The notes: generated from the letters alone by a model not told the origin. A stretch of DNA of 64,000 nt from Alphaproteobacteria bacterium (GCA_965201115.1 OZ241745.1:2306308-2370307), one strand, 5' to 3'. Counted from the stretch's first letter, positions 604-34,800 are shown. A program made the numbers and translations.

Positions 604-1251
604 TTGGCGCTGATGATCCCGGCTTCCGAGAGAATCGCCGAAAGCGATTGCGTTCCGATATCCGCCTTGTCGCACTTGCTCTATTGCCCGCGGCGGTGCG
701 CGCTCGTTCACGTCGAGCGGCAATGGGTCGAGAACCGCTTTACCGCGGAGGGCCGCGTTCTGCACGAACGCGCCGACTCCGGGGTCGGCGAGACCCGGCG
801 CGGCGTGAGGATAGAGCGGCGCGTACCGTTGCGATCCCTGCGGATCGGCGTATTCGGCTTCGCCGATGTCGTGGAGATCCGCGAAGGCAACCGCCCTTAT
901 CCGGTCGAATACAAACGCGGCCGCCCCAAGCCGTACCGGGCAGACGAAGTACAATTGTGCGCCCAGGCGATATGCCTTGAAGAGATGCTGGGCGTGGATA
1001 TAGTCGAGGGTGCCCTGTTCCATGGCGGCGCCCGCCGGCGCAAGACCGTCGCGTTCGACCCGGAACTCCGTGCGCTGACCGAGCGCGTCGCCGGCGAAGC
1101 GCGGCGGCTGATCGCCGAAGGCCGGACGCCTTCGCCGACATATGCCGCGCGGAAATGCGAGCCCTGCTCCATGAACGCGATTTGCCGGCCCAGGCAAATC
1201 GGTGACGCACCCTCGGTCGAGCGCTGGCTGACGGCGGCGTTGACCGCCTGA
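604..1251 (+). CDS. cas4: CRISPR-associated Cas4 (RecB-like nuclease with C-terminal Cys cluster)
   Basis: ATG abuts cas7 stop; N-terminal C..LLYCPRRC motif plus C-terminal CEPCSMNAIC four-Cys cluster typical of Cas4; position before cas1. Confidence 0.8.
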   Translation: MALMIPASERIAESDCVPISALSHLLYCPRRCALVHVERQWVENRFTAEGRVLHERADSGVGETRRGVRIERRVPLRSLRIGVFGFADVVEIREGNRPYPVEYKRGRPKPYRADEVQLCAQAICLEEMLGVDIVEGALFHGGARRRKTVAFDPELRALTERVAGEARRLIAEGRTPSPTYAARKCEPCSMNAICRPRQIGDAPSVERWLTAALTA

Positions 1252-1261
1252 ATGGACCGCC

Positions 1262-2302: not shown

Positions 2303-2309
2303 ACCGCCG

Positions 2310-2600
2310 ATGTTGATGCTCGTCGCCTATGACGTATCTACCGTCGATTCGGCCGGGAAGCGGCGGTTGCGCCGCGTCGCGCGCCTGTGTGGCGACTATG
2401 GACAGCGGGTGCAGTATTCGTTGTTCGAATGCCAGGTCGACCCGGCGCAGTGGACCGCGCTGCGCGAGCGTCTCGTCGCCGAAATCGATATCGAAAGGGA
2501 CAGCCTGCGATTCTACCGGCTCGGCGCGAATTGGCGCGGGCGAGTCGAACACGTCGGAGCCAAGCAGACCTACGATCCCGACGGCCCGCTGGTTATTTGA
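2310..2600 (+). CDS. cas2: CRISPR-associated endoribonuclease Cas2
   Basis: 96 aa from ATG 2310 (MLMLVAYDVS...); Cas2 beta-strand N-terminus; directly upstream of leader and array. Confidence 0.85.
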   Translation: MLMLVAYDVSTVDSAGKRRLRRVARLCGDYGQRVQYSLFECQVDPAQWTALRERLVAEIDIERDSLRFYRLGANWRGRVEHVGAKQTYDPDGPLVI

Positions 2601-2779
2601 CCCGCGCGAACCGGAAGCGACCGCACGGGCGTCAGCAGGTTCGCGCACTTGCAACCCGCTGATTTTCCGTAATACTGGCCGCGCGCCCCGAGATCGGGGC
2701 GGCATCGGCGCCGCTGGACCCGACGATTCGCGGAAATCGGCCGATTGCCCGGTGTTTAACAATCGAATATACTATCGCC
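2601..2779 (+). promoter_or_regulatory. CRISPR leader (AT-richer segment between cas2 and first repeat)
   Basis: Non-coding; GC drops near array (…gtgtttaacaatcgaatatactatcg) immediately before first repeat at about 2780. Confidence 0.5.
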
Positions 2780-5700
2780 GCCGCCCCCCCGCGCGGGGGG
2801 CGCGGATTGAAACTTTCCGTCGCGGATCTGTTGCGCGGCGGCGCGCGCGCCGCCCCCCCGCGCGGGGGGCGCGGATTGAAACCAGCGCACGGGCGGCGGC
2901 GCCCCCCGGGGAGAGGGCCGCCCCCCCGCGCGGGGGGCGCGGATTGAAACCCTGCAGCTGGGCGTTGCAGCGGATGGCGCCGGCGCCGCCCCCCCGCGCG
3001 GGGGGCGCGGATTGAAACTCTTCTTCACTCGAGATCGCGCCCGGGCGCGGGGGCCGCCCCCCCGCGCGGGGGGCGCGGATTGAAACCCTCTCGAGCCCCT
3101 CCACGTCTCCGTGTTCGTCGGGCCGCCCCCCCGCGCGGGGGGCGCGGATTGAAACTGGATCGCGCGGAGGCGCGGAAAGCGGCTTTCCCGGCCGCCCCCC
3201 CGCGCGGGGGGCGCGGATTGAAACGCGGTGGATCGGGCGTACGTCCAGGAGATGACGGCGCCGCCCCCCCGCGCGGGGGGCGCGGATTGAAACCGGGTGC
3301 CGGCGTGGTCATCGCGCATTCGCCGGGCCGCCCCCCCGCGCGGGGGGCGCGGATTGAAACCGCGCCCAGTCCGCGCGCGGCACGGGGCGCCCGTGCCGCC
3401 CCCCCGCGCGGGGGGCGCGGATTGAAACAGGCGGTGCGTGCGCCGCGCCATGACGCGGGGCAGCCGCCCCCCCGCGCGGGGGGCGCGGATTGAAACTCGC
3501 CCCGGGTTCGCGGCTACGCCGCGGCCGGCGGCCGCCCCCCCGCGCGGGGGGCGCGGATTGAAACCGGCCCCGCGCTCGACATGCTGCGCGTGTTTATCGC
3601 CGCCCCCCCGCGCGGGGGGCGCGGATTGAAACATCAAAAGGCGGCGGAAGCGGGATTGCAGGCGAGGCCGCCCCCCCGCGCGGGGGGCGCGGATTGAAAC
3701 TGGTGGTTATGCGGTCGATTCGGAACGACGGCGGCCGCCCCCCCGCGCGGGGGGCGCGGATTGAAACACGTTCCGGTCACAGTTAGTGATATAGATTCCC
3801 GGGGCCGCCCCCCCGCGCGGGGGGCGCGGATTGAAACCACGTAGCCGCCGCAACTGCTGGCGCGGGTGCCGGCCGCCCCCCCGCGCGGGGGGCGCGGATT
3901 GAAACATTTTTTTCTCCTCGGTTGGGGCGGCGGCCCATCGCCGCCCCCCCGCGCGGGGGGCGCGGATTGAAACACCTACGTCGATCGCGCCGATGGGTGG
4001 CGGCGGCGCCGCCCCCCCGCGCGGGGGGCGCGGATTGAAACGCACGACCTGGCCGGCGGGGGGGTCACGGGGCGGCGCCGCCCCCCCGCGCGGGGGGCGC
4101 GGATTGAAACCACGTACCGCGAGCGATAACGCATTCGATTTCGGGCCGCCCCCCCGCGCGGGGGGCGCGGATTGAAACGCATATCGGAACAATTAGACCG
4201 AAGCGGCCGCCGGGGCCGCCCCCCCGCGCGGGGGGCGCGGATTGAAACGTGATGGTCGTCACCAGGCTGCTCCGCCGCGGCGGCCGCCCCCCCGCGCGGG
4301 GGGCGCGGATTGAAACAGCTTCTCAACCAACCGGGCGCAGCGCGCTCCGGGGGGCCGCCCCCCCGCGCGGGGGGCGCGGATTGAAACGCCCGCAGCAGGT
4401 CCTGAACGGTGACGGTCACACCGGCCGCCCCCCCGCGCGGGGGGCGCGGATTGAAACGTGCGCGCCACGCCCACTTCCCAGTCGGCCGCCCCGCCGCCCC
4501 CCCGCGCGGGGGGCGCGGATTGAAACCCGCTATCGGAGAGGTACAGCGGGAGCGGCCCGTTGCCGCCCCCCCGCGCGGGGGGCGCGGATTGAAACATTTC
4601 GTTTCTCCGGCGGCGCGGCGGGCGGCTGGCCGCCCCCCCGCGCGGGGGGCGCGGATTGAAACGAGCGCGAGTTCCGCCGCCGTGGAGCCCGCCGCCAGCG
4701 CCGCCCCCCCGCGCGGGGGGCGCGGATTGAAACATTTCCGCGATCGATCTGCAGCCGGTGGCGGCGAGCCGCCCCCCCGCGCGGGGGGCGCGGATTGAAA
4801 CTTTGCGCAATGGCTTTTGCGAACGAAGGACGGTGCCGCCCCCCCGCGCGGGGGGCGCGGATTGAAACATGTTGAGAAAGGAGATGGCGTTGTCGGTATC
4901 AGGCCGCCCCCCCGCGCGGGGGGCGCGGATTGAAACCCCGGAAACCCTGATGGTTTCCATTCGCGATAAACTGCCGCCCCCCCGCGCGGGGGGCGCGGAT
5001 TGAAACGCTTCCCGACAGGGAAATTCGGCTGTCGCAAAGGGCCGCCCCCCCGCGCGGGGGGCGCGGATTGAAACACGAACAGCTGGAAACGGCGGTCGGC
5101 GGGTTCGGCCGCCCCCCCGCGCGGGGGGCGCGGATTGAAACCAGTCGTCGGGCAGTGCGAGATCGAAGGCGAGATTGCCGCCCCCCCGCGCGGGGGGCGC
5201 GGATTGAAACTGGAAAGTGAAGGATTTTCTTACGAAATCCGGGCCGCCCCCCCGCGCGGGGGGCGCGGATTGAAACGTTACCTGTTCCCCGCACACGCGG
5301 GGATAGACCGGGAGCCGCCCCCCCGCGCGGGGGGCGCGGATTGAAACATTATCTTCTTCTTTCCAAAGACGAAAGCGATAATGCCGCCCCCCCGCGCGGG
5401 GGGCGCGGATTGAAACACCGCCCGCGGCGGCAGCTGTCTCGGCGGCGCGGGCCGCCCCCCCGCGCGGGGGGCGCGGATTGAAACCAGATACGACTGCGGC
5501 GCGGGCCGGCGCACCAGGCCGCCCCCCCGCGCGGGGGGCGCGGATTGAAACGCTTCGAGGCGCGAATTCGCGGTCGGAAGCGATATGCCGCCCCCCCGCG
5601 CGGGGGGCGCGGATTGAAACATTTCGCGGCGTGCTGATGAAGTACGGCGCCATCGGGCCGCCCCCCCGCGCGGGGGGCGCGGATTGAAACTCGGACCCGG

Positions 5701-6637
5701 CCGGCAACGCCAAACTCGCCAAGGGGCCGCCCCCCCGCGCGGGGGGCGCGGATTGAAACGGTGGCGCCGCGCGCCTCGAGCCGCGCCGCCGCCGGCCGCC
5801 CCCCCGCGCGGGGGGCGCGGATTGAAACGGTGGCGCCGCGCGCCTCGAGCCGCGCCGCCGCCGGCCGCCCCCCCGCGCGGGGGGCGCGGATTGAAACGCC
5901 TGCGCTTCCGGGCGGCGCCCCGCCCTGTATTGCCGCCCCCCCGCGCGGGGGGCGCGGATTGAAACCTTTTCCGCTACCATCTCGTTCATGTTAGCGGCGT
6001 GCCGCCCCCCCCCCCCCCGCGCGGGGGGCGCGGATTGAAACCATAAACGGCCTAAATGGGCGCGTGACGCGCGTCGGCCGCCCCCCCGCGCGGGGGGCGC
6101 GGATTGAAACATGAGAAAGAACAGGAAGCGAACGAATGCCAGGCGGGCCGCCCCCCCGCGCGGGGGGCGCGGATTGAAACCGTATTACCGAAGGCGCAGT
6201 TACCCACCGGCGCATGCCGCCCCCCCGCGCGGGGGGCGCGGATTGAAACCGTATTACCGAAGGCGCAGTTACCCACCGGCGCATGCCGCCCCCCCCCGCG
6301 CGGGGGGCGCGGATTGAAACTCGCCGTCGATCGCCGCGCCCTCGGCCTTCGCGGCGCGCCGCCCCCCCGCGCGGGGGGCGCGGATTGAAACAGCGCGGTC
6401 GAGGGGTACTGCCGTGTCTCGGCGCGCCGCCCCCCCGCGCGGGGGGCGCGGATTGAAACCGCGTGAAGAAAGACCGTTGGGAAGGCGCGCACCGGCCGCC
6501 CCCCCCCCCCGCGCGGGGGGCGCGGATTGAAACGAGCAGGTCGATGAAAATCTCGCCGGCGCCCAGGGCCGCCCAGGGCCGCCCAGGGCCGCCCCCCCCC
6601 CCCCCCCCGCGCGGGGGAGGGGGCACCAGCTCTAAAC
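2780..6637 (+). CRISPR. CRISPR array, about 56 repeats and about 55 spacers; repeat G(C)CGCCCCCCCGCGCGGGGGGCGCGGATTGAAAC (33-34 bp), unit 68-70 bp, degenerate terminal repeat at about 6591-6637
   Basis: Regular 68-70 bp periodicity of a conserved palindromic repeat ending GGATTGAAAC (I-C signature); spacers of heterogeneous GC; terminal repeat mutated (…gcgcgggggagggggcaccagctctaaac). Confidence 0.95.
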
Positions 6638-8878
6638 GACCAACGATTCCGAGTCGAGAAACACCGGTCGGTCCCACGTCAGGCCAGTGTCGGGACGGTA
6701 GAGATCGAGACTGCGCAGTACGGCGAACTGCCGTCCAAATTTCTTTTCGTTCACGAATTCGACGGCGCCGGATTCGACGAGCGCGTTTTGCACACGCCGC
6801 GGGACGGGCACGGTATAGGGCTGCAGGCGCCGCGCGACTCCGCCCGGCCTCTCGACCGATTGCAGTTTGCCGAGTAAGCGTTCGGCCTCGCTTCCGCGCT
6901 CCATAGGGCCGCGGTAAGGCACGATCACCGGAATCATGTCGGTTTCGATCATCCGGAACTTCGCCGCCACGGATTCGAACGGGAAGTCGAGTTTCCGCAA
7001 TCTTTCGGCAATCGTCCGGAGTATCCGCTTGGCGTCGAGTTCGTCTGCCTTGGTCCAATACAGTTCGCCAAAGTAATCGCGAATCGCCTCAGGCGAATCC
7101 AGCGCGGAGCAACGGCGCATGACGGCCCGGGCCGCATCGGCGAACTGCGCTACCTCGGGCGGCGGTTTGCGGCCCGCGCTTTCGCCCGGGTCGAATACGA
7201 AGACCTCGCCCGCAAGGGCGCGGCCTTCGCGGTTGCAGCGCCCGGCAGCCTGTACGATCGATTCCAGGCCGGCCCAGGCGCGCCAAACGACCGGAAAATC
7301 CACGTCGACTCCGGCCTCGATCAATGACGTTGCAACGAGCCGTACCGGCGCCCCGTTTTTCAGATCGATGCGCACGGCGTCCAGCGCGTCGCGTCGATGG
7401 GCGGCGCACATGCATGTCGTCAGGTGCCGGGCGCCTTCGGCCTCCCGGATGAGTTCGTAGAGTTCGCGCGCGTGACGGCGCGTGTTGACGATGCAAAGGA
7501 CCTGCGAGGCAGCGCGCAATTGCGCCGACAGCTCGTCGTCGTCCACTCTGCCCCGGTCGCTTATCGCGACGCGCTTGAGCGTTCGGTACAGGCGTTCGGG
7601 TTCGGGCGCGATTTCGCGCATGTCGGCGAAGCCGCCGGTAAAACCGTCCGCCTTGCCCAAGGCGGGTTGCGTGGCGGTGCAGAGAACGACGGTGGTTCGC
7701 CAGTTGCGCGCCAGCTCGTCGAGCGCGGCGACGCACGGCCGCAACAGTTTCAGGGGCAACGTTTGCGCCTCGTCGAGAATGACCACGCTGTTCGCAATGT
7801 TGTGCAACTTCCGGCAGCGCGACGGGCGGTTGGCGAACAGGCTTTCGAAGAACTGTACGGCGGTCGTGACGACGACCGGCGCATCCCAGTTCTCCATCGC
7901 CAACCGCAGCTTGTCCCTCGCTTCGCGCCTGCCGATACGGTCTTCGTCGAACGCGCTGTGGTGCTCGATTACAAAGTCGGTTTCCGCGCCCTCGCCGAGC
8001 GCCTCGCGAAACGCCGCGGCGGTTTGCTCGACGATGCTCGTGAACGGGATGACGTAGATGACGCGCTCCATGCCGTGGCGCGCGGCGTGGCGCAGCGCGA
8101 ACGCCAGCGACGAAAGCGTCTTGCCGCCGCCGGTCGGAACGGTGAGCGTGAACAAGCCCGGCGCGGCCGCTGCCTTCTCCCATGCATGCTTCAGCACCTC
8201 GGCGCGGGCGGCATTCACCGCACCGGGTTCGGCGCCGGCCGCAAGCTCGCGAAGATACGCGTTGAGCCGCGCCGCCAATTCTTCGATGGGCGGATGGCTC
8301 CCGCGCATCGGATCATCGCCGTCAAGCCGGGCGAAATAGGCTTCTGTGTCGAGATAGTCGGCGTCCACAAGGGCGGAAAACACCATGCGCGTGAGAAAAG
8401 CCGCGCCGAAGGCCCCGCCTTCCCGGTCGCGGGGTTTCATGAGCGGCATTTTCGGTTCCGGCAGCGCGATCTCGCGCCGCCACGCGGGGTCGGGTTTCGG
8501 AACCCGCTTCGAAAGACGATCCTCCAGAGCGGCGATTCGGCCTTTTCCGCCGGATACGCCGTCGGCGAGGCCCGCGTGGTGGCCCGCCACGCAAAACGCC
8601 AGGATTTTTCCGATCCGCCCGCCGTAGCGCTCCATCGCGATTTGCGCCCCGGCGGTCGAGTGATCGACACGACCGGGGTTGCCGGCGAGCCGCTTCCTGA
8701 ATTCGGCCGTGTATTTTCCGACGTCGTGCAACAGGCCTGCCGCGCGCCCGAAATCGGCGCAGCCGGCCGATTCGAGAAAGGCGGCGGCCCGCTTGCCTGT
8801 TTCTTCGAGATGAGCGGACAGGATATGCCAGTCCCGACGATCATCGCCGCCGCTGCTATGCGCGTACCAAGTACTCAT
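6632..8878 (-). CDS. cas3: CRISPR-associated helicase/nuclease Cas3 (HD domain + DEAD/DEAH helicase)
   Basis: Start MSTWYAHSS at 8878; HD motif (LLHDVGKY…HHAG), Walker A (PTGGGKT), DEAQ box; ORF track's extra 63 N-terminal codons judged read-through. Confidence 0.85.
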   Translation of the reverse strand: MSTWYAHSSGGDDRRDWHILSAHLEETGKRAAAFLESAGCADFGRAAGLLHDVGKYTAEFRKRLAGNPGRVDHSTAGAQIAMERYGGRIGKILAFCVAGHHAGLADGVSGGKGRIAALEDRLSKRVPKPDPAWRREIALPEPKMPLMKPRDREGGAFGAAFLTRMVFSALVDADYLDTEAYFARLDGDDPMRGSHPPIEELAARLNAYLRELAAGAEPGAVNAARAEVLKHAWEKAAAAPGLFTLTVPTGGGKTLSSLAFALRHAARHGMERVIYVIPFTSIVEQTAAAFREALGEGAETDFVIEHHSAFDEDRIGRREARDKLRLAMENWDAPVVVTTAVQFFESLFANRPSRCRKLHNIANSVVILDEAQTLPLKLLRPCVAALDELARNWRTTVVLCTATQPALGKADGFTGGFADMREIAPEPERLYRTLKRVAISDRGRVDDDELSAQLRAASQVLCIVNTRRHARELYELIREAEGARHLTTCMCAAHRRDALDAVRIDLKNGAPVRLVATSLIEAGVDVDFPVVWRAWAGLESIVQAAGRCNREGRALAGEVFVFDPGESAGRKPPPEVAQFADAARAVMRRCSALDSPEAIRDYFGELYWTKADELDAKRILRTIAERLRKLDFPFESVAAKFRMIETDMIPVIVPYRGPMERGSEAERLLGKLQSVERPGGVARRLQPYTVPVPRRVQNALVESGAVEFVNEKKFGRQFAVLRSLDLYRPDTGLTWDRPVFLDSESLVV

Positions 8879-9216
8879 TGGCGCCCGGCGGCGCGGGCGT
8901 CGTTCGAAAGGTCCATGGCATCCCGCCCGTATCCATGCCGTGCTTGGCCACGAGGGTACGATGGTCGAGTGTTGTTGTCTAATACCGTTGGCTATCGATA
9001 CCGACGGGTAGCCGTCGGCATGGACTGGGCAGTTGTCTCCGGGGCGCGATCCGGACGCCGCGGGCATCCTGCCCGCGCACTCTCGCCAGTCTCGCCGCCG
9101 ATGTGCGGTCGGGGCGCCCGCGGTCCCGGGCGGCGGCGCCGGCGCGGCGGGCGGTTGCCAAGGGGCGGGGGGATGGTGTGTATTGGGGCCGCGGCAGTCA
9201 CCGGGGAGGCGGGGCG

Positions 9217-15989: not shown

Positions 15990-16033
15990 CCACAATCCCG
16001 TTGTCAACAAATCTGTTGACAACGGGATTGTGG
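15990..16033. repeat. Perfect 20-bp inverted repeat (CCACAATCCCGTTGTCAACA-aatc-TGTTGACAACGGGATTGTGG)
   Basis: Exact reverse-complement arms with 4-nt centre, 31 bp after truA stop and about 90 bp beyond the 3' end of the transposase remnant. Confidence 0.8.
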
Positions 16034-16120
16034 TGCGCTACCCCAAGTTTACCGCTGTATTTGGCGAGTTGTTATGCATCGGCGTGTTACGCTGGTTTTG
16101 GCGCGCGAGCGGCGCTACAT

Positions 16121-16645
16121 TCAGGCGGTGTATTTTTGCGTTCCTCCGGGTTGTGGGTCGATGCCGAGCGCGGCGTGGATTTCGTTCTGTTCGCCTCCGG
16201 GCATGGCGGCTTTTCGCACATGGAGGGCGCGTCCGTCGGTCTGTCGGAAGGTTGCGGTCACGCGTTGCTGTCCTTCGAGGATTTTGCTCAGGGTATTCCA
16301 GCTGTGGCGGAGTCCGTGTCGGCGCAGTTGCTTTCGTATGGTTTGGACGAGTCGGCATGCGATGACGGATATGAAGAGATGGCCTTCGGCGCGTTCCGGT
16401 TTGCGGCGATATACGGGGCGCGGGCCGAGTTCGGATTCGAGGGATCGGAAGACGGCTTCGAGATCTGTGAGCGTGGCGTATGTTCTCCGGAGGGTTTCTT
16501 CGTCCCATTCGGTTATGTTGCCGCGCAGGCAATAGACGCCGGGATGTGTGGCCATGGAGCCTTCGAGGGGTTTGCGGGTCCACGTTACGGCTGTGGCTTT
16601 TTCTCCGCTTTCGTCGTCGGCGACGCGAATGCTGTAGCGTTGGGC
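16121..16645 (-). pseudogene. DDE transposase C-terminal remnant (IS4/IS1634-like family, tentative)
   Basis: Last about 174 codons of minus ORF 16121..18973 read …TWTRKPLEGSMATHPGVYCLRGNITEWDEETLRRTYATLTDLEAVFRSLESELGPRPVYRRKPERAEGHLFISVIA…GIDPQPGG, a transposase C-terminus; upstream part of ORF is antisense to the caspase gene and not transposase-like. Confidence 0.6.
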
Positions 16646-16933
16646 GGCTCCCCGGCTTTTTCCTTCAATCGTCCGATGCGCTTCCACACGGCGTCGATGC
16701 GTTTGCGCGTCCGGGACCGGGACAGGCCCTGGTGGAGTTGGGCGCGCGCGGTTTCGAAGCGCGTTGCGAAGCGTTCGACGATGGCGCGCTCTGGGTATGG
16801 GCGACTCGCGGATCGGGCGTTGCCGTTCGGGCGCGCGCGCCGTATGTATGGTCGCGTAGTGTGTCGCCGGTGCGCTCGGGCAGCGCGGCCGCCGGCGCGT
16901 TTCCGCACGCGGGAGCGGAGAGGAGGAGACGGC

Positions 16934-18544
16934 ATGAATGCAGCGGGCGCGAAAGGGCCGCGGGTGCGCTTGCGCGCATGGGCGGCGGCGCTGTTCGTGT
17001 CGGCGGCGTGGGCGTTCGGCGCAACCGCGGCCGCGGACTACGCCAACCCGAACGGCGTGGCGGTCATCGTGGGCAACCGGAACTACGGACACCGGGACGT
17101 GCATGAGGTGTCCTACGCGCACCGCGATGCGGAGGCGTTCCGGCTCTACGTGCTGGACGTACTCGGCTTCGATCCGGAGAACATCATCGATCTGCGCGAC
17201 GCGAGCCAGGCGGCGCTCGAGACGGCGTTCGGCAACGAGCGCAGTCCCAACGGGATGCTGTGGCGTTATCTCGACCCCGAGGGCGGTTCCGACGTCGTCG
17301 TTTTTTATTCCGGGCACGGTGTTCCGGGCCTGAGCGACGAGCGGGGCTACCTGCTGCCGGCGGACGCCGATCCGAACACGGCGGAGATCAACGGTTACCC
17401 GATAGACGTGTTGTACGCGAACCTCGGTAAGCTCAAGGAGGCGCGTTCGGTTCGGGTATTTCTGGATGCGTGTTTTTCGGGGGGCAGCGACCGGGGGATG
17501 CTTGTGCGTTCGGCGTCTCCGGTGTTCGCGGAGGCGGAACTGCCATCGGCGTCGCGCGCGCTCACGGTCTTGACCGCCGCGTCGGGGGATCAGGTTGCGT
17601 CGTGGGACGAGGCCGCGGGCCACGGGCTGTTTACGCACCATCTTCTGGATGCGCTGTACGGGGCGGGGGACGCCGACGGCGATGGGTCGGTGACGGCGCT
17701 GGAGGCGAAGGCGTATCTCGACCGGTACATGACGCGCGCGGCGCGGCGCGCGCTCGGGCGTCTGCAAAACGCCGGTCTTCGCGGCGATGCGGCGGCGGTT
17801 TTGGCGGCGGCGGCGGGCGGTTCGTTTCCGGAGCGCCCGGTTATCGACGCGGCGGCGGATTCGGCGCCGACGCGCCCCCCTGCCGCGGCTCCCGCGGCGG
17901 CGGCGGCGGCGGCGGCGCTTGGGTTGGACCGCGCGTCGCGTGCGCTGGTTCAGCGGGGGTTGGCTTCGTTGGCGTTCGATCCGGGTCCTGTCGATGGCGC
18001 GTTCGGACCGCGGACCCGTTCGGCTCTGGGGGCGTGGCAAACGGCGAAAGGGTACGAGGCGACGGGCCGGTTGACGCGCGAGCAGGCGGAAGCGCTGGTC
18101 GCGATGGGCCGCGATGCCGAGAGCGCGGACCGCGCCGAGCGCGAGCGCGAGGCGGAAGCGGCGGAGCAGGAGCGTCTTGCACGCGCCGATGACGACGCGT
18201 TTGCCTCCGCGCTCGGCTCCGCCCCGGAGCCGTCGCGCGACATGGCCGCGATAGGGGACTATGGCGGCACGCTGCTTCAGCTGCTGAACCGCAACGCCGC
18301 CCTCAGCTACCCCCGCGTCTCCATGCAGAAAGGCGAGGAAGGCTCCGTGCCCCTCCTGCTGCGCATCGCCCCCGACGGCGACCTGCTGGAAGTGCGTGTC
18401 CTCGACGACTCGCAAGCCTCGCGCACCTTGGTCAGCGCCGCCGTCCGCGCCGTCCAGCGCTCCTCCCCCTTCAGCGACTTCGCCACCGGCATGGGCAACG
18501 ACCCCATCGAGTTCCCGATCACAGTTAACTATCGCCTGCGATGA
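16934..18544 (+). CDS. Secreted caspase-family (peptidase C14) protein fused to a peptidoglycan-binding domain and a TonB C-terminal domain
   Basis: Strong SD AGGAGGAG before ATG 16934; signal peptide; His/Cys dyad context (YSGHG … VFLDACFSGG); PG_binding-like segment (LVQRGLASLAFDPGPVDGAFGPRTRSALGAWQ); C-terminal TonB_C-like (SYPRVSMQKGEEGSV…PITVNYRL). Confidence 0.7.
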   Translation: MNAAGAKGPRVRLRAWAAALFVSAAWAFGATAAADYANPNGVAVIVGNRNYGHRDVHEVSYAHRDAEAFRLYVLDVLGFDPENIIDLRDASQAALETAFGNERSPNGMLWRYLDPEGGSDVVVFYSGHGVPGLSDERGYLLPADADPNTAEINGYPIDVLYANLGKLKEARSVRVFLDACFSGGSDRGMLVRSASPVFAEAELPSASRALTVLTAASGDQVASWDEAAGHGLFTHHLLDALYGAGDADGDGSVTALEAKAYLDRYMTRAARRALGRLQNAGLRGDAAAVLAAAAGGSFPERPVIDAAADSAPTRPPAAAPAAAAAAAALGLDRASRALVQRGLASLAFDPGPVDGAFGPRTRSALGAWQTAKGYEATGRLTREQAEALVAMGRDAESADRAEREREAEAAEQERLARADDDAFASALGSAPEPSRDMAAIGDYGGTLLQLLNRNAALSYPRVSMQKGEEGSVPLLLRIAPDGDLLEVRVLDDSQASRTLVSAAVRAVQRSSPFSDFATGMGNDPIEFPITVNYRLR

Positions 18545-19521
18545 CTCCGACCGGCCCGTTGCCGACGACATCTGACTCGAACACGCGATCGCCGTCGGCT
18601 CGATCCCGCCGGAACTGCGCGACGTGTGGAATCGACTCGAAAACGAAGGGATCGCGGTCGCGCGTCTCGAACGCGGCGCGCCGCATGGGCGAGAACAAGA
18701 GGCGGACCGGATGCCCGGACGCAACGGCTTCAGCGAACGGCTCCTACGCCCACATACGCGTGTACGACCCGGCGATCCAGACGCTGTCGGAGTTGGCCGA
18801 CATACAGGCCGACCGCGCGACCGGCGAACCGCGCATGGTGCGCACCATCGTGCCCGACAAGATGACCGCGCTGATCGCGCGCGAACGCACCGGCGAAGGC
18901 CGGCACGTCCGCTTGGCGATGCTCGACGCCACGATCTCCTGTCTGTGGCCCGAAGGCATGTCGGCGCTCTCATGGGCGGACCGCGAGGCCGACCCCGCGC
19001 GCGGGCAGATGGGCCTCGACCTCGTGTTCAAGACCGCCGACGGCCATATCACCGCCGGCGCGGTGACCGACGCCGAATGGGCCGGCCTCTGCCGCGCGCT
19101 GCGGCGCGAAGATCTGCTGGCCGACCCGCGTTTCGAAACCCCGGCGCTGCGCTTCGCCAATGTCGCCGAGCGCCGCGCGATCATGAGCGCCGAAATCGCG
19201 AAATGGCCGTCGGCGGAGATCCTCGCGCGCCTCGACGCCGAACAGGCGCCGTCGGCGCCGGCGCTGCGGCGCCGCGAACCGCCCGGCGACCCCCAAGTGG
19301 TGGAGAACGGCATCGTGGAGCTTCATGACGACCCCGTGCTTGGCCCGGTGCGCCAGCCGCGCCCCGCCGCGCGTTTCGACCGCACGCCCGCCGGGGGCGC
19401 GCTGGCCCCCTTCCCTGGCGCGCATGACGCCGATATACTGGCCGAACTCGGCTACGGCCGCGCCGCCATCGCCGCCTTCGCGGCGCGCGGCGTAACCGCC
19501 GCGCAGGAGCAAACGCCATGA
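18541..19521 (+). pseudogene. Family III CoA-transferase (CaiB/BaiF-like), N-terminally truncated/corrupted
   Basis: Only the middle and C-terminal parts (…ALIARERTGEGRHVRLAMLDA…) resemble CoA-transferase III; N-terminal about 190 aa absent, first about 100 codons are non-homologous junk; ORF begins at the caspase gene stop. Confidence 0.5.
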
Positions 19522-20705
19522 CCGCAACCGAACCCACCCCCGCCGCCGCGCCCTGTTCGGGGCCGAAGGCCCTGCCGAACGACGGGCGGCATTTCGACAG
19601 CGTGACGATTCGCCGTTTCCGGGGGCTCGAGGACCTCGAGCTCGACGGCTTGGGTGCGTTCAACCTGTTCGTCGGCGCGAACGACGTCGGCAAGACGTCG
19701 GTGCTTGAAGCCGTATTCCTGTTGTGCGCTACACATCCGATGGCGCTGGTGCATATGCAGAACCACCGGCTTCTTGCCGTCTCAGGATTCGACGATCTCG
19801 CCATAGCGTTTCATGGCCTGAACGTCGATGAGAATATCGAATTGATCGCAAAATCGCGCGAGGAACACCGCAATGTTTCCTTCTCGTCGGCCGATACATG
19901 GGCGCCGGGACAGCGCATGCAGGCGCTCAAGGGAATGCAAACCACGAATTTGGCTGGTAAAAAAAAGATTGTGGATATATCGACATCGTTCGGAGCCGAT
20001 GCAGAACGAGTTATGCAATGGAAAAGCGAAGTGTTCACCGAGGCCGGTGACGCCCCGCTATCCGCCGAGGCCCAGTTTCGGTTTTTAGAAGATGAACCGA
20101 AGTTCGATCCCGGCGCTTCACCTGCTAATTTTAAAGAAATTATCGATCGCACGCGAATTCGGGGCCAATTGATCAGCACAGGCAGGGGATACGAACCCGG
20201 ACCCATCGCCGAGATCATAACAAAAAAAAGAAAGAAGGATTTGTTGATGTCTTTGGAAGGCATCGACCCGCAGATCCAGGATGTTACAGTCCGAGGAGAC
20301 ACTATCTATCTGGATACCGGTGTGAAAGAAATGCTCCCGTTGAACATGTTCGGCAATGGCGTCGGTCTTGCAACGAACATTGTGGCGCAATGTGTCTTGC
20401 GCGACTTCCGGAGCATTATGATAGATGAAATTGAAAACGGTCTCCATTATACGGCCATCCGTCAAGTGCTCGAATCGATTTTACGCTTGGCTGTTTCCCA
20501 TGGGATTCAGGTATATGCGACCGCCCATAGCATCGATGTCTTGACATGTTTTCGAGAAGTTTTACTTGGAGAGGAATTCGAGGCATATCGATCAATGATA
20601 GCATGCTATGTTTTGGCTAGAGATCGGAAAGATCGTGTGCGTTCATACAGATACGGCTATGAGCAGTTCGATCACTGCATCAAGCACGGAATCGAGATCC
20701 GGTGA
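19518..20705 (+). CDS. ABC/AAA-type ATPase of the OLD/AbiL/PARIS AriA-like class (AAA_15/AAA_21-like)
   Basis: N-terminal IRRFRGLEDLELD…FVGANDVGKTSVLEA (Walker A), distal IMIDEIENGLH (Walker B/D-loop region); markedly lower GC than surroundings; first about 28 codons GC-rich so true start may be GTG 19602. Confidence 0.65.
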   Translation: MTATEPTPAAAPCSGPKALPNDGRHFDSVTIRRFRGLEDLELDGLGAFNLFVGANDVGKTSVLEAVFLLCATHPMALVHMQNHRLLAVSGFDDLAIAFHGLNVDENIELIAKSREEHRNVSFSSADTWAPGQRMQALKGMQTTNLAGKKKIVDISTSFGADAERVMQWKSEVFTEAGDAPLSAEAQFRFLEDEPKFDPGASPANFKEIIDRTRIRGQLISTGRGYEPGPIAEIITKKRKKDLLMSLEGIDPQIQDVTVRGDTIYLDTGVKEMLPLNMFGNGVGLATNIVAQCVLRDFRSIMIDEIENGLHYTAIRQVLESILRLAVSHGIQVYATAHSIDVLTCFREVLLGEEFEAYRSMIACYVLARDRKDRVRSYRYGYEQFDHCIKHGIEIR

Positions 20706-21292
20706 TGTCCATCGAATTTGCACTATTCGTTGAGGGAGTCAACGAAGAGCTTCTGTTCTGTGTCCTTCTTCATCGCCTCGGTCTTTCGAAGTTCACGATA
20801 GAAAAGATCGACGGAGGCGTTTCGAAACTGGCCTCGGCGAAGCCGCGTATGGATCGGCGTCGGAATGAAGGGAAACGAATCGCAGTCGTTCTCGACGCAG
20901 ATCAGGATGCGCAGGCAACCTTGAACGAGTTCGAGGCCGAAAAGAAGCGGCTCGATCTTCCCGTGGACCGGGTATTTCTTGTCCCTGACAACCGGAGCCC
21001 GGGAAGTATCGAGACCATTCTGGAAGCGATGGCGCCCGAACGGCATCGGCGGATACACGAATGCTTCACTCAATACCGGGAGTGTCTGAAGGAAATATCG
21101 CCGGAGTACGTTCTTCCGAAACCGAAGGCCCGGATTTTCGCTTACTGCGAAGCTGTCGGCAACGGACCGAAGGAACGCAACAGGGATTTCAGAGTCGCCG
21201 CACACTGGAACCTCGACGCGCCCGCTCTCAGTCCGTTGAAGGCCTTTCTACGCGAGTGCGCCAACACTGACCCGATCGACGAAACCGCGTGA
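20702..21292 (+). CDS. Small TOPRIM-like protein (DUF4276/RloB-like, tentative), partner of upstream ATPase
   Basis: Start overlaps ATPase stop (GTGATG); conserved Glu (FALFVEGVNEE) then DxD (VVLDADQD) about 60 aa later, the TOPRIM pattern; 196 aa. Confidence 0.5.
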   Translation: MMSIEFALFVEGVNEELLFCVLLHRLGLSKFTIEKIDGGVSKLASAKPRMDRRRNEGKRIAVVLDADQDAQATLNEFEAEKKRLDLPVDRVFLVPDNRSPGSIETILEAMAPERHRRIHECFTQYRECLKEISPEYVLPKPKARIFAYCEAVGNGPKERNRDFRVAAHWNLDAPALSPLKAFLRECANTDPIDETA

Positions 21293-21309
21293 CGACCGAA
21301 CACAGGAGG

Positions 21310-22107
21310 ATGATCATGATCGTCAAGCAGCTCTACACCGGGAACGCCTACCGCAACTTCAACTACCTGATCGCCTGCCCCGAGACGGGCGAGGCGCTGG
21401 CGGTGGACCCGCTGGACCATCGGCGGTGTTTGGCGGCCGCGAAAGCGGAAGGGTGGGAGATAACCCAGATACTCAACACCCATGAGCATGGCGACCACAC
21501 GGGGGGCAACGCCGCCATGATCGCCGCTACCGGCGCGAAACTGCTCGCCCATGCGGGCGCGAAGGATCGCATCCCCGGCATCGACGTCGGGCTGGCGGCA
21601 GGCGATGTCGTGAAGGTGGGGCGCGCGGTCGCGCTCGAGGCGCTCGACACGCCGGGGCATACGATGAGCCATGTATGCCTGCTGTCGCGCACCGACGCCC
21701 CGGCGCTGTTCTGCGGCGACACGCTGTTCAACGCCGGCGCGGGCAACTGCCACAATGGCGGCCACCCGGCGGAACTGTACGACACATTCGCCGGCCAGCT
21801 GGCGCAACTGCCCGGCGACACGCTGGTGTATCCCGGCCACGACTATATCGCGCATAATCTGGCGTTCACGCTCGACCGCGAGCCGGACAACGCCGGCGCG
21901 CGCGCCCTCGCCGACGAGGTGGCGGAGCAGGACCCGCATGCGGCGAAGGTCACCACGCTGGCGCTGGAGAAAGAGGTCAACGCCTTCTTCCGCCTGCGCA
22001 GCCCGAGCGTGATCGCCCGCCTGCGCGAGGCCTTCCCCGACCTGCCCGACGAGCCCTCGCCCCGCGACGTGTTCCTCAAGCTCCGCGAATTGCGAAACAG
22101 CTGGTAG
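21310..22107 (+). CDS. gloB: Hydroxyacylglutathione hydrolase (glyoxalase II), MBL fold
   Basis: HxHxDH motif (THEHGDHTGG), GloB-like length and C-terminal domain; alternative start 21289/21316. Confidence 0.8.
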   Translation: MIMIVKQLYTGNAYRNFNYLIACPETGEALAVDPLDHRRCLAAAKAEGWEITQILNTHEHGDHTGGNAAMIAATGAKLLAHAGAKDRIPGIDVGLAAGDVVKVGRAVALEALDTPGHTMSHVCLLSRTDAPALFCGDTLFNAGAGNCHNGGHPAELYDTFAGQLAQLPGDTLVYPGHDYIAHNLAFTLDREPDNAGARALADEVAEQDPHAAKVTTLALEKEVNAFFRLRSPSVIARLREAFPDLPDEPSPRDVFLKLRELRNSW

Positions 22108-28830: not shown

Positions 28831-31800
28831 TCAGAAGCGGACGGTCAGGGTGGCGCTGCCGGTGAAGTCGCGGTTGCCGTGGCGGGCGGCGGCGTAGTTG
28901 GCGTTGGCGCGGAGGGCCATGCGGCCGTCGGCCCATTCGTGGGCGGCGCCGAGGCCCAAGCGGGCCCATGTCGCTTCCGCTTCGGCCTTGAAGGGCGGCC
29001 TGTCCGCCGCGGTGGTTTCCATTGCGCCGGACAGTTCGCGCTCCAGGTCCAGCGTTGCGAACATGGCGCCGGCGCCGCCGGGGAGGGCGGCGGACTCGGC
29101 GCGCACGCCGGCGCGGGCGGTAATGCGCCGGCCCGCGTCAAGCGACACGCGCTCGTTCACGGAGTCCGTGAACGACGACATCTCCACCATCGACCAATCG
29201 GCGCCCGCGCGCGGGGTCAGCGTTACGCGGCCCAGCTCGAGGCGCCGCCCGATCTCCACGCCGGCAGCGTAGCCGCGGCCCGAAAGATCGCGCGCAAGCG
29301 CGCCCTCGAGCGCCGCGTCCGAATCGAGGTCGGCCTCGTACAGCGTAGCCGCGGCCTGAGCGCTCACATAGATATTCTCGGCGGGCAGCCACGCGCCCGA
29401 TATGCGGGCGCCCGTGCCGGTTATCTCGACACGGCCGCCGCCCGCCTCGGTGTCCGCGTCCGTGTCCACATCGGCGCGGCCGCGCACATGATGGACGGAG
29501 ATCGCGAACACGCCGCGTTCGCCCGCCGCGCCCTCGATCCCGGCCTCGAACCCGAAGCGGCGGTAATCGTGATGCGCCTGGGCTGTCGAGGACGCCGGAT
29601 GGCGGTCGCCGCCGGCGGCGTCGAGGCGCGCGAACGCGCCGCGCGGCGCGCCCGCCGAAGCGAAACGGTCGCCATGGGCGGGGAGCGCGTTCAGCGCCAG
29701 CAGCACCGAAGGCAGAGCTTCGTACACGCGGTGGCGCGGCGCCGGACCGACCTCGATGCGGCCGTCGGCGGTTATCCGGGGCATCGAGTCGGCGCGGCCC
29801 TCGCGCTTGAGGACGACGGCAGCGCCGCTGCTGTCGATGCGCCCGCCGCCGACGCGTTGCGCTGCCTCCTCGTCCGATTCGCCCGCGGCGGCCGTTATCG
29901 TCACCCTCTCGGCGCGGGCGACGGGCTCCTCGATGCGCCCGTTGGCGCCCACCGTCACCGCGCCGCGGGGTACGTCGACGCTTTGCACCGCGCCGTTCAC
30001 CTCGACCGCGCTGCCGGTTCCCGCCAGCGTAACCCTGCCGTCGATTTCGCCGCCGGCGCCGACCGTCACGGTCGAAGCCGCGCCGGCGTCGCGCGCCTCC
30101 ACGGCGCCCTGCACCATGCCATCGACCGTCATGCTCAGCGCGCCGGTTTCGGCCAGGACCGCAACGCGGCGGCCCTCCGCGTTCTCCGCGCCCACAAGCG
30201 CGCCGCCCGCGGCAACCTCGACCGCGCCGCCGGCGGGAACATGCAACATGCCTTCCGCATCCCCGCCCACGGCGATGAACTCGACGCCACGGACATTCCC
30301 CCTGAACTCCGCGCCGGACGCCACCGTCAGACGGTGCATGCCCCCGCCGCCGCCGATGACGTCGCCCGTCAGCGCGTTCGCGACCGCAACCGTCAGCGCC
30401 CCGGGGCCCAGGTCCTCGATATTGCCCACGACATTGCCGTTCACCGTCACCGTCAGGTCGCCGGACGCGCTGCGCACCGCCGCCCGCCCGTCGAGGTTCG
30501 ATAGCCGCCCCCCGGCGTTTACCGCGACCGTTCCGCCGCGGTCGAACAGCACGCTCCGGGCGGAGCCATCGACCGTCACCGCGCTGGCGGCCAGATGGAT
30601 GAGACCCTCGACCGAGCCGCCGGACTTCACATGAACGTCATGCTCGCCGCCGCCGCGGCCGAATATCCCGCCCTCGACCTTGCCGCTCACATCTACTTTC
30701 AGATCGCCGTCGCCCTCGCCGCGAATGTCGCCCGTCACGGTCGCCCGCGCCGCAACGTCCACCGTCAGGTCGCCCGCCGCGCCGCGGATCGCCTCGGTCG
30801 TTCCATCGCTCTCGACGCCTGTTACCGAGCCGCCGCTGGCGACCGTTACCGAACCGCCATTGTCGTAGAGCACCCGCCCAACGCGGCCCGCAATCGTCAT
30901 CGCGCTTGCCGGAAGATGCACCGTGCCCGTCACCGCGCCGCCGGCCATCACCGCAACCGTGTGCGAACCCGCGCCCATGCCGCGAATGCCGCCGGTCACC
31001 GTGCCCGTCACCGTCGCCGTCAAATCCCCCGCGCCGCGCTCCTCGATGTCGCCCGTCACGCGGCCCGCAACCGTCGCGGTCAAGTCGCCCGCGCCGCGCT
31101 CCTCGATGTCGCCCGTCATGCGGCCCGCGACCGACGCGACCAGGTCGCCGGCATCCAGATCCACGATATCGCCCGTCACCATGCCGCCGGACGCGACCGT
31201 GACTTCGTGCTTGCCGGCGCCCTTGCCGTGGATGGCGCCCGTCACCGCGCCGCTCACATTCACGGTCATGGCCCCCGCGCCGCGCCCCTCGATGCGGCCC
31301 GTCACCATGCCGCCGGACGCAACCGTGACATCGAGAGCGCCCGCGTCGGCGCGAATCGCCTCGCCGCCGATGCCGGCGATGCGGCCCGTCGCCGCAACCA
31401 TCAGCGCGCCGCCGTTGTCGAACAGAACGCGCCCCGCAGCGCCGCGGATCGTCGTCCCGCTCTTCGGGTTATGCACCGTGCCCAACACCCGCGCCTTCTC
31501 CGCGATCTCGACGGTATGCACGCCGCCGCCGCGACCGAAGATCTCCCCGTTAATCGTTCCGGTCTCCGACACCGTAACCGTCAGGTCGCCATCGCCGCGC
31601 GCCTCGATATTGCCCGCGACCATGCCGTGAACAGTCACCGCCAAATTGCCCGCGTCGCCGCGGATCGCCTCCTTCGTTCCGTCGATATCGAGGCCCGTAA
31701 TCTCGCCGCTGGCGTTGACCGTTACCGCGCCTCCGTTGTCGTAGTGGACGCGCCCGACATCGCCCGAGACCGTCAGCGCCGCGCCCGCGGGCAGGCGGAC

Positions 31801-34800
31801 CGTTCCGGCAACGGCGCCCGAGGACGCCACCGTAACCGTGTGTTCGCCGGCGCCTTCGCCGACAACGCCGCCCGTCACCGTTCCGGCGACCGAAACCTCC
31901 AGATCGCCCGCGCCGCGCTCGGCGATGTCGCCTGTTACCGCGCCGGCGACGTCGACCTCGAGATCGCCGGCGCCGCGGCCCTCGACGAGGCCCGTGACCG
32001 CGCCATTGGCCATAACCGTGACGTCGAGATCGCCCGCGTCGGCGCGAATCGCCTCGGTCGTTCCATCGTTATCGACGCCCGTGACGGCGCCGCCGCCGGC
32101 GACCGTCACCGTTCCGCCGTCGGCGTAGAGAATGCGCCCGACGCTGCCGCCCACGGTCATCGCCGCGGGGTTGCGTATCGTGCCCGTCACCGCGCCGCCG
32201 GCCTCGACGGTCGCCATCAGCGTCCCGCCCGACTCGATGTCGCCCTCGACGCGCCCTTCGTCCCGGACCGTGACCGTCAGCGCGCCCATCGTGCTCTCGG
32301 CGGCTGTGCCTTCGACGCCGGTCAGTTTCCCGCCGCCGGCGACCGTTACCATCCCGCCCGAGGCATACAGAACGCGCCCGACGCTGCCCGAAAACGTGAA
32401 CGACGCTTGCGGGTTGTGTATCGTGCCCGTCACGACGCCGCCGGCCTCGACGGTCGCCGTCAGCGTCCCGCCCGACTCGACGTCGCCCTCGACGCGGCCT
32501 TCGTCGTTCACCGTGACGGTCAGCGCGCCGGCCGTGCTCTCGGCGGCTGTGCCTTCGACGCCGGTCAACTTCCCGCCGCCGGACACCGTCACCGTCCCGC
32601 CCGAGGCGTAGAGAACGCGCCCGATACTCGCCCCGCTCCCGACCGTGAACGACGCCTGCGGGTCCCGTATCGTCCCCGTCACGACGCCGCCGGCCTCGAC
32701 GGTCGCCGTCAGCGTCCCGCCCGATTTGACATCGCCCTCGACGCGGATCCCGTCGTTCACCGTGACCGTCAGCGCGCCGGCCGTGCTCTCGATGGCCACG
32801 CCCTCGACGCCGGTCAGCGTCCCGCTCCCGGACACCGTCACCGTCCCGCCGCTGGCGTAAAGAATGCGCCCGATGCTGCCCGCGACCGCAAGCGCGGTCT
32901 GCGGGTCGTGTATCGTGCCCGTCACAACGCCGCCGGCCATGACATTCGCCGTCAACGAGCCGCCGCCATCGACGCGGATATCGCCCGTCACTGTTCCCGA
33001 AACGGTCGCCGTCAGAGCTCCGCCGCCGTCGCCGAGGATGGCGACGCCCGACGCCGCGCCCACTTCGCCGCCCGCGCCCACGGTCACCGCGCCGCCGCCG
33101 AACAGATGCACGCCCGCGCCGGTTCCGCCCATCGCGGCGCCGTGTACCGTCACCGTCTGATTGCGCACGCCCGCCGTGACGCCCGCGCCGCGGACATAAA
33201 TGCCCTTCGCCCCGCCCGTCACACGCGCGCCCGCGGAAACCGTGACCGCGATGGCGCCGTTGCTGTCGTGCGGAACGACGTAAAGCGCCTCCACGCCGTT
33301 CCCCTCGGCGTCGATGGCGCCGCCGGTCACGTCCACATGGATGTCGCCGGCGTTGTAGGTCAGCGCGTGTTGCCGGACCGTGTTCTTCCACGCGGCGTCG
33401 TAGTCGGCGTCGGGAAGGGCGGTCAGCGCCGTCGTCAGTCCGCTGCTGTCGCCCGACAACACGGCTGTCAGCGCCGCGCGCTCCGCGGCCGAGAGAGCAT
33501 CGCCGGCGCGGACACGATCGGCGATCGCCGTGTGGGACAGCGCCATGGCGCGGACGCCGGCGCGCGACAGACCCAGTATTTCCTCCGCCGCCGCGTGCGC
33601 CAGCGGGCCGTCGCCGGTCGGCGCGGCGGTCGCCGCGGCGCGCTTGCGCCGGAGATCCTCCGCTGCCGCCTTCCACGCGGCGTCGTAGTCGTCGGCCGGA
33701 AGCGCCGCCAGCGCCGTCGTCAGCGCGGCCGAATCGTTATCCGTTATCGCCGCAAGCACAGCCTGTTCCGCCGCCGACAGCGTCTCGTCGGCGCCCGCGA
33801 TCCGGCCCCGGATGAAAGCCTCCCTCACCGGCGCGCCCACCGTGACCGTTCCGCTCGACGTAACGTGGATCATGGGCATGGTCCGCGCCGCGTCGTCCGC
33901 TGTTGTCGCGCCCACGCCCATCGTGTGGCCGCTCGACCGCCGCGCCCAGGCGACAACGCCGGCCTCCGGCGCCTCGACCGCGCCCGCATGCGTCACAAGG
34001 ATGCGCCCCGCCGCGCTGTCGTCGTTCGTAAGCCGCCCCTCCATGCCGATGGCGAACGGCGCCGCGACTTCCGCCGCCGCGCCCGTCGTCATCTCGATGG
34101 AGCCGAGGCCGTCATGGCGTACCCAGAGACCCCGCGCGTTCAGGCCTTCCGCGGAGACGGCGCCGCCCGTCATCTCGACGGAGCCCTTTCCGGGCGACCC
34201 CGACTTGTAAACATGCAGCCCGTTGGCGTTGTCGCCCGCCGTCTCGACCGAGCCCCCCGTCATGCGCGCGGAGGCGGAGCCGCTCCCCCCGCTGCGCTCG
34301 GCGTAAACCCCGTGGGAATGGATGATATTGACATAGCTCCCGCCCCGCGTGCGGATCGCGCCGCCTTCCATGACGACGGCCACGTTCGAGACGCCCGCCC
34401 CCCGATATCCGGACCAGCCCCTGAGACCTATGGCCCCCGCCCCCGTCGTCTCGATCAGGCCGTCGGTCATGGTAACCGTGACGTCGCCCTGCCCTCTCTC
34501 GGAGCCGGAGACGCCGTAGGCGCTGTGGCCCTCTGTCTTGACGACGGTGTCGCTGCCCGAGAGGGTGACGGCAACGGCGCCCGTCGAGGAGGCGTTGCTC
34601 CGCGCGCCGGCGACGCCCGCGGAGGAGGCTCCTTTCGTCGAGACGGAGCCGCTCACGCTAACGGTTACGTTGCCCGTCCCGGCGTGGGCGCCGCTGACGC
34701 CGGTGGCGCTCGCCCCCTGCGTCGCGATGGAGCCGCCGCTCATGCTGACGGTTATGTTGCCCGACGCGCCGGAGGCGATGGAAGCCGTCAAGCCGCTACC

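Follow-up and report, generated by a model that had tools for sequence, protein, structure and literature searches.

A putative ABC ATPase–DUF3226 defence module of the AbiL/PDC-M38 type at a fixed chromosomal site in a high-GC alphaproteobacterial lineage

In a 64,000-nucleotide stretch of the genome of an alphaproteobacterium (GCA_965201115.1, OZ241745.1:2306308-2370307; hereafter the window), two genes encode an ATP-binding cassette (ABC) ATPase (gene 1) and a small protein of the DUF3226 family (gene 2), and we propose that together they most likely form an anti-phage module of the AbiL/PDC-M38 type. The two open reading frames (ORFs) are intact and have the sizes and overlap that a preliminary description of the sequence had given them (Table 1). 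They are adjacent and co-oriented, which is the gene order by which PDC-M38 is recognized. The stop codon of gene 1 and the start of gene 2 meet in the string TGATG, sharing one nucleotide if gene 2 begins at the in-frame ATG at 20705 (195 amino acids, as in the public record P0001) and overlapping by 4 nucleotides if it begins at the GTG at 20702 (196 amino acids); the ATG is the more likely start. The arrangement is that of a predicted translational-coupling junction. The pair also stands apart in base composition, as was seen from the outset: guanine plus cytosine (GC) content is 0.46–0.57 over positions 19600–21400 against 0.67–0.78 on either side. Gene by gene, it is 0.53 for the ATPase and 0.56 for the DUF3226 gene against 0.72 for the upstream CoA-transferase (CoAT) fragment, 0.68 for the downstream gloB and 0.70 for the window, and at third codon positions (GC3) it is 0.60–0.64 against 0.87–0.89 in the flanking genes. 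The identification of these flanks as a broken CoAT gene and gloB was likewise confirmed.

The product of gene 1 matched AAA_15 (1.8e-12) and AAA_21 (3.1e-10) in Pfam. Among the PADLOC models it matched AbiLi (PDLC02336) at 6.9e-52, with residues 28–395 on profile positions 4–340 of 340, and PDC-M38A (PDLC04608) at 5.5e-35, with residues 25–395 on positions 4–366 of 367; matches to the AriA, GajA, PtuA and Old models were far weaker and partial. A scan of NCBIfam gave no model at its cutoff, and N-terminal matches to RecF and Rad50 were weak (RecF 38.6 bits against a cutoff of 172). The Walker A (G53-x4-G58-K59-T60), signature-like (G279-x-G281), Walker B (D303-E304) and H-loop (H337) motifs show no or almost no variation across 79 aligned homologues, and the strings quoted in the preliminary description (RFRGL...GANDVGKTS and IDEIENGLH here, VEGVNEE and LDADQD in gene 2) are all in the sequence. 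In an AlphaFold2 (AF2) model (pLDDT 84.5) the N-terminus is of low confidence and the loop at 128–160 is disordered; Foldseek aligned the model with GajA (3.7e-12), with the Thermus OLD structure 6p74 (1.3e-10) and also with PtuA, the retron Eco8 effector and Rad50/SMC heads, at probability 1.00. From the conserved motifs and these structural matches, gene 1 is therefore identified as an ABC ATPase of the defence-associated class (OLD/Gabija/Septu/Rad50), in agreement with its first description as an OLD-type ATPase. Residues 2–15 form a GC-rich, low-confidence and disordered N-terminal extension upstream of the AbiLi match; it is included because no canonical start is available other than the ATG overlapping the stop codon of CoAT (ATGA), and the same start arrangement occurs in the related loci L004, L001, L085 and L087.

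Gene 2 matched DUF3226 (PF11536) in Pfam at 4.1e-17 (63.1 bits against a cutoff of 27), with residues 7–186 aligned to profile positions 3–206 of 208. This is one of the families that had been suggested for it, and with PADLOC the described candidate PDC-M38 came to light. A set of 86 relatives was assembled, all matching DUF3226. The AF2 model of gene 2 (pLDDT 94.3) has four beta-alpha units, with strands at residues 6–10, 31–35, 59–65 and 90–94, followed by a helical C-terminal domain. Residues E11, D65, P95, G101, E104, C121, Y125, C128 and W169 are invariant in all 86 relatives, and H115, K142 and C149 are nearly so. E11 stands directly after strand 1 and, in the window copy, D65-A-D67 stands at the end of strand 3, a placement that in the model corresponds to the TOPRIM arrangement. 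Family-wide, PDC-M38B matched 79 of the 86 members (best 3.5e-9), AbiLii 74 (1.1e-10), mad4 50 (1.5e-10) and HEC-01B 38 (3.6e-4), with further matches below threshold to OLD-like_TOPRIM (35 members, best 2.2e-4), AriB (34, 1.2e-4), DUF4435 (20, 3.1e-3), OLD-like_TOPRIM_1 (11, 2.6e-3) and DUF4276 (10, 0.018). Where alignment coordinates were printed, residues ~7–66 are collinear with the Glu-to-DxD segment of OLD-like_TOPRIM, OLD-like_TOPRIM_1, DUF4435 and DUF4276. Since the literature treats AbiLii and MAD4 (of MADS3-4) as TOPRIM proteins working with ABC ATPases (PMC11464382; PMC13064643), we accept gene 2, with the caveats below, as a probable TOPRIM-superfamily protein. Given the AbiLi match of gene 1 and the grouping of DUF3226 with such partners through the AbiLii, mad4 and PDC-M38B models, the split, AbiL-like logic first suggested for the pair appears to be right.

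The caveats concern the metal site and the fold. The TOPRIM-like Glu and DxD described at the outset hold for E11 and D65, but the second Asp is variable, D67 being Asp in 52 and Asn in 34 of the 86 relatives; D96 is Asn in 35 of the 86, and no pattern that would compensate for the D67 change was seen. When PDB and BFVD were searched with the gene 2 model by Foldseek, no structure was found at E<1e-3; what came back were generic flavodoxin/Rossmann-like folds, with TOPRIM primase domains at a non-significant E of 0.014–0.034. Searching PDB with the gene 2 sequence and profile brought up nothing relevant, and hhalign of the family profile against P2 Old gave no match, a comparison of low power because the template was a single sequence. 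The fold assignment therefore rests on the remote profile matches, the topology and the literature. One explanation for these data is that the cassette is a remnant, decaying or domesticated, in which the DUF3226 protein acts as a non-catalytic adaptor, a reading to which the Asn substitutions and the absence of a significant TOPRIM match lend something. We consider it very unlikely: neither ORF is broken in any locus, dN/dS (the ratio of nonsynonymous to synonymous divergence) is 0.23–0.34, both models are of high-confidence folded proteins, E11, D65 and E104 are invariant and the window copy has the full D65-A-D67. Moreover, Asn is itself able to ligate Mg2+.

The helical domain carries more invariant residues (H115, C121, Y125, C128, Y136, K142, C149 and W169) than the TOPRIM core and is therefore probably a surface that binds the substrate or the ATPase. 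We note that the His/Cys set H115, C121, C128 and C149 is fully or nearly invariant in the 86 relatives and that a homologue encoded on Klebsiella plasmids lacks this set. A single zinc site formed by H115, C121 and C128 was considered and rejected, as these residues, 6–7 positions apart along one helix, would be too distant from one another in the model.

The order GST (glutathione S-transferase), intact CoAT, ATPase, DUF3226 and gloB recurs in five further genomes or scaffolds of high GC content (L001, L002, L004, L085 and L087), in each of which the gene calls of the pair share one coordinate. The outer flanks differ among the five. From this shared order it follows that the cassette predates the divergence of the clade, and the pair is kept in six of the six genomes with a CoAT–gloB neighbourhood. 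A recent insertion that broke CoAT is rejected: what CoAT has lost is its far (5') end, where it adjoins an insertion sequence (IS) remnant and a caspase-domain gene and not the pair, and the relatives have both an intact CoAT and the pair.

The cassette has nevertheless diverged far more than its surroundings. Between the window and L001, L002, L085 and L087, identity is 85–88% for gloB and 72–79% for CoAT against 38–44% for the ATPase and 52–56% for the DUF3226 protein. L001 and L085 come from near-identical genomes (GST 98%, CoAT 98%, gloB 99%) but differ within the cassette (ATPase 86%, DUF3226 69%), and their nucleotide identity profile is a mosaic: 95–100% in the flanks and the first ~150 nucleotides of the ATPase gene, 78–96% in the rest of that gene, 61–79% in the DUF3226 gene with one block at 94%, and 97% again just inside gloB. 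Synonymous divergence (dS) between these two loci is 0.055–0.081 in the flanks, 0.25 in the ATPase gene and 0.96 in the DUF3226 gene. Such an excess of dS is not producible by faster protein evolution and so indicates that diverged alleles have been brought in by recombination at the cassette. The dN/dS of the cassette genes in this comparison (0.25–0.28) implies that both are kept functional by purifying selection. In this clade the pair thus occupies one fixed chromosomal site, with exchange of diverged alleles. In both loci a 1,123-amino-acid SNF2/Helicase_C/NOV_C protein is encoded just upstream of the GST-CoAT-pair-gloB block (L001 394-6690; L085 394-3765), and the upstream region of L001 also holds an AAA_15/DUF3696 ATPase accompanied by small ORFs. 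In L003, an unrelated locus, a gene of similar SNF2/NOV_C type lies beside the pair.

The fixed site raises the possibility of a housekeeping or stress-repair role tied to the operon, in which a RecF/Rad50-like ATPase and its TOPRIM partner would act on host DNA or RNA, for example on methylglyoxal- or glutathione-related damage, co-expressed with GST, CoAT and gloB. This would fit the constant CoAT–gloB position and the overlapping or close stop and start codons in six genomes, the pair's lack of a detectable plus-strand promoter or terminator of its own, the weak RecF and Rad50 matches and the purifying selection on both genes. However, sister lineages have GST-CoAT without the pair. Among the loci surveyed, 80 gloB loci (GTDB representatives, 73–80% identical) lack both the pair and GST-CoAT neighbours, and 80 metagenomic CoAT loci, in several of which GST-CoAT is kept at 62–69% identity, have neither the pair nor a downstream gloB, which means that the operon works without the pair; an empty CoAT/gloB junction was not found among these 160 loci. 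The family is found in unrelated contexts and on plasmids, the GC3 of the pair is 0.56–0.74 against 0.80–0.96 for its flanks across the six genomes, dS is 4- to 17-fold above the flanks, unlike a core gene, and the RecF score lies far under its cutoff. We regard a housekeeping role as highly improbable. The preliminary description had taken conservation across relatives at this site as a reason to abandon a defence role; five relatives do carry the pair here, but the role is not thereby refuted because the alleles are exchanged, the GC content has stayed foreign, and elsewhere the pair is plasmid cargo or part of defence islands. GST-CoAT adjacency is itself kept in distant metagenomic lineages (L098-L101, L103 and L111; CoAT 52–69% identical), with neither gloB nor the pair downstream.

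Beyond this clade the pair moves as a unit among unrelated bacteria. An exhaustive search with the family profile yielded 2,434 cluster representatives at E<=1e-3, of which 992 had E<=1e-10 (clusters at 50% identity); nearly all are stand-alone proteins of 185–200 amino acids. In every locus read, the ATPase gene directly precedes the DUF3226 gene, and six of the seven distant loci checked (L089, L092, L094, L096, L097 and L091) have a TGATG or TAATG junction. The GC content of the pair is below that of its surroundings in all 13 loci compared, six of them syntenic (the window included) and seven elsewhere. The pair is often associated with defence or mobile genes: in L003 it is surrounded by a defence island (SNF2/NOV_C, DUF1156 and DUF499/HEPN_Swt1), in L092 it lies beside a Y2 transposase and a type I restriction–modification (RM) system, and in L094-L096 it is part of a variable Fic/NYN/YjiT-YjiV island. 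It is also carried, with no other cargo, by non-mobilizable ColRNAI plasmids of 4.2 kb, for which there are 139 Klebsiella records. Besides rop and a helix-turn-helix (HTH) gene, these plasmids, of which L091 (NZ_CP076014.1, 4167 bp) is the example read, encode a "DUF3226 domain-containing protein" and, before it, an "ATP-binding protein", the pair (1953-3700 in L091) having a GC content of 0.31–0.32 against 0.48 for the remaining plasmid. Although the plasmid ATPase is only 23% identical to gene 1, the plasmid pair scores 1e-58 on AbiLi, 1.2e-43 on PDC-M38A and 3.9e-11 on PDC-M38B, and its DUF3226 protein aligns with the gene 2 family profile by hhalign at 98.1% probability (E 6.8e-14). These scores tie the window cassette to PADLOC PDC-M38.

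Carriage by such small plasmids invites another explanation, that the pair is primarily an addiction or stabilization module in which the DUF3226 nuclease is the toxin and the ATPase its neutralizer, and that post-segregational killing, not phage defence, explains why it persists at a single chromosomal site and on tiny plasmids. Being the plasmids' only cargo, the retention in all six syntenic genomes and the coupled two-gene layout typical of toxin–antitoxin pairs would all be expected of it, and PARIS itself acts as a type II toxin–antitoxin system (PMC13064643). As PARIS is both, however, addiction is compatible with defence; a 395-amino-acid ATPase with fully conserved catalytic motifs exceeds the needs of a simple antitoxin, and the exchange of diverged alleles and the defence-island contexts fit an arms race better. 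We consider a primary role in addiction unlikely.

Our favoured reading, held with moderate confidence, is that the cassette is an AbiL/PDC-M38-type ABC ATPase plus TOPRIM-like module that most likely acts against phage, in an abortive-infection or toxin–antitoxin-like manner. We infer both this role and a PARIS/OLD-like mechanism by analogy, the model being drawn from PARIS (PMC11464382) and from OLD, Gabija and AbiL (PMC13064643). An oligomer of the ATPase would serve as the infection sensor, binding the small nuclease and keeping it in check. A phage cue, or ATP binding or hydrolysis, would release or activate the Mg-dependent TOPRIM-like effector, which may then cut nucleic acid, either tRNA, as does AriB, or DNA, as do OLD and GajA. 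Cleavage would halt phage production and abort the infection.

Besides the variable D67 and the negative Foldseek and P2 Old comparisons, several points weigh against the proposal of an anti-phage module. The pair sits within what appears to be a co-transcribed glutathione/CoA-transferase/glyoxalase gene string in this clade, and neither a plus-strand promoter nor a terminator of its own was detected in the local string. The window copy of gene 2 matches defence profiles weakly: 2.7e-4 (over a short stretch) and 0.01 on the PDC-M38B models, 1.2e-3 on mad4 and 4e-3 on AbiLii, the last spanning residues 59–185. Two loci, L089 and L097, have no defence neighbours around the pair; tblastn of gene 2 against a phage collection and a plasmid collection gave no match, nor did a scan of viral contigs. 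We know of no DUF3226 or PDC-M38 member shown to protect against phage, either in the papers found or otherwise, and a literature search on DUF3226, PF11536 and PDC-M38 returned no paper. [quoted passage not shown]

A bolder proposal is that DUF3226-type pairs constitute a mechanistically distinct immune family, with an atypical metal site (E11, D65, E104 and a variable second Asp) and a Cys/His helical domain, and that in this clade one of them was captured into a glutathione/glyoxalase operon and long kept there as a locus of allelic diversification. We think this quite unlikely. If true, an immune gene would be housed within a detoxification operon of housekeeping type and expressed together with it, and defence might be linked to electrophile or redox stress.

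ABC ATPases paired with TOPRIM proteins (OLD, Gabija, PARIS, AbiL and MADS3-4) make up a major theme of immunity in bacteria. The DUF3226 branch, with ~2,400 clusters at 50% identity, consists of candidates only, and the locus described here adds a well-defined, intact example from a high-GC environmental alphaproteobacterium; it leaves the current understanding of such systems unchanged. Its points of interest are the allelic exchange at a fixed site within a detoxification gene string and the atypical DxD/DxN conservation. The diverged alleles at one site form a natural series that could help to map specificity determinants, and for experiments the very compact Klebsiella plasmid version is probably the family member easiest to work with.

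Of the neighbouring genes (Table 1), the truncated CoAT shows homology to intact orthologues only from near 18574–18685, and tblastn alignments with the CoAT genes of L001, L002 and L004 start at query residues 71–105. The downstream gloB begins 23 nucleotides past the gene 2 stop and has an AGGAGG ribosome-binding site of its own; no plus-strand terminator was found between the two. The IS remnant lies in a lower-GC stretch (~16000–16800, GC 0.58–0.63) and adjoins the point where, compared with the relatives, GST and the 5' portion of CoAT are missing; its 149-amino-acid fragment had no Pfam match. The caspase-domain protein looks secreted and sits where the relatives have GST and the start of CoAT. 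The preliminary description had placed the cassette next to CRISPR-Cas and an IS remnant. Both are in the window and the IS remnant is ~3 kb off, but the CRISPR-Cas locus ends 10.4 kb upstream of the pair, with an oligopeptide ABC transporter, fmt, truA, the low-GC IS remnant and the caspase-domain protein in between. Farther downstream, two very long minus-strand ORFs (Table 1) have a gene-like GC3 of 0.86–0.87 in a codon-position scan.

Table 1. Coordinates of the ATPase–DUF3226 pair and of other features in the 64,000-nucleotide window
Feature	Position	Strand	Details
Gene 1, ABC-type ATPase, AbiLi/PDC-M38A-like	19518..20705	+	ORF, 395 aa
Gene 2, DUF3226 protein	20702..21292	+	ORF, 196 aa from GTG 20702
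Stop/start overlap GTGATG	20702..20707	+	Gene 1 TGA 20703-20705, gene 2 ATG 20705-20707
5'-truncated family III CoA-transferase (CoAT)	18541..19521	+	Pfam CoA_transf_3, 2.3e-32; aligns to profile positions 125-365/366 only
gloB, hydroxyacylglutathione hydrolase	21316..22107	+	Pfam Lactamase_B + HAGH_C
Type I CRISPR-Cas locus	1-9067		Cas7 1-603 (cut by window edge), Cas4 604-1251, Cas1 1262-2302
CRISPR array	2780-6464		~54 repeats (GCCGCCCCCCCGCGCGGGGGGCGCGGATTGAAAC)
Cas3	6632-9067	-	HD + helicase
IS remnant	16121-16560	-	C-terminal transposase-like fragment, 149 aa; ~3 kb upstream of the pair
Caspase-domain protein	16934-18544	+	536 aa; Peptidase_C14 + PG_binding_1 + TonB_C
Long ORF	28831-35259	-	2,142 aa
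Long ORF	37293-43049	-	1,918 aa

Among characterized systems, OLD (P2 Old, class 1) and GajA share with the pair the ABC ATPase fold and apparently also the TOPRIM-type Glu and DxD. In both, however, ATPase and TOPRIM are fused in one polypeptide, whereas the window has split ORFs; the OLD-like_TOPRIM matches of the gene 2 family are sub-threshold and its comparison with P2 Old was negative, and, unlike in Gabija, no GajB/UvrD helicase gene is adjacent. The MAD3-MAD4 part of MADS likewise combines an ATPase with a small TOPRIM-like partner, and mad4 is matched by 50 of the 86 gene 2 relatives, but gene 1 scored 34.6 bits on the NCBIfam MAD3 model against a cutoff of 420, and the neighbours are CoAT and gloB, with no methyltransferase or other mad genes nearby. 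In PARIS (AriA and AriB) the sensor is an ABC ATPase and the TOPRIM effector is the product of a separate gene; the two act as a type II toxin–antitoxin system (PMC11464382; PMC13064643). Gene 1 matches AriA at 1.6e-13, in the ATPase motif segments alone, and some gene 2 relatives weakly match AriB (34/86) and DUF4435 (20/86). AriB, however, is a DUF4435 protein of ~35 kDa, whereas gene 2 encodes a 22-kDa DUF3226 protein with a different C-terminal domain, and the window copy had no AriB or DUF4435 match at E<=1 in Pfam or PADLOC, so that it does not qualify as a PARIS effector.

AbiL of Lactococcus lactis (AbiLi and AbiLii), which PMC13064643, citing Deng et al. (1999), gives as an experimentally shown abortive-infection system, is closer. 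It is a two-gene operon of an ABC ATPase and a separate small TOPRIM-type protein, as the pair appears to be, and, compared through hidden Markov models, AbiLi is the best match for gene 1; the differences are the 4e-3 score of gene 2 on AbiLii and the host, a lactococcal plasmid there and a high-GC proteobacterial chromosome here. PDC-M38 has the same two-gene plan, an ABC ATPase followed by a DUF3226 protein of ~190–210 amino acids; gene 1 matches PDC-M38A over its full length, and 79 of the 86 gene 2 relatives match PDC-M38B. The window member differs in its own score of only 2.7e-4 on PDC-M38B, so an automated PADLOC call is uncertain and might miss the system, and in the invariant His/Cys set that its subfamily, unlike the plasmid member, carries in the helical domain. 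From these profile matches we assign the cassette, as a probable member, to PDC-M38, a catalogued candidate family related to AbiL, and not to a new kind of system.

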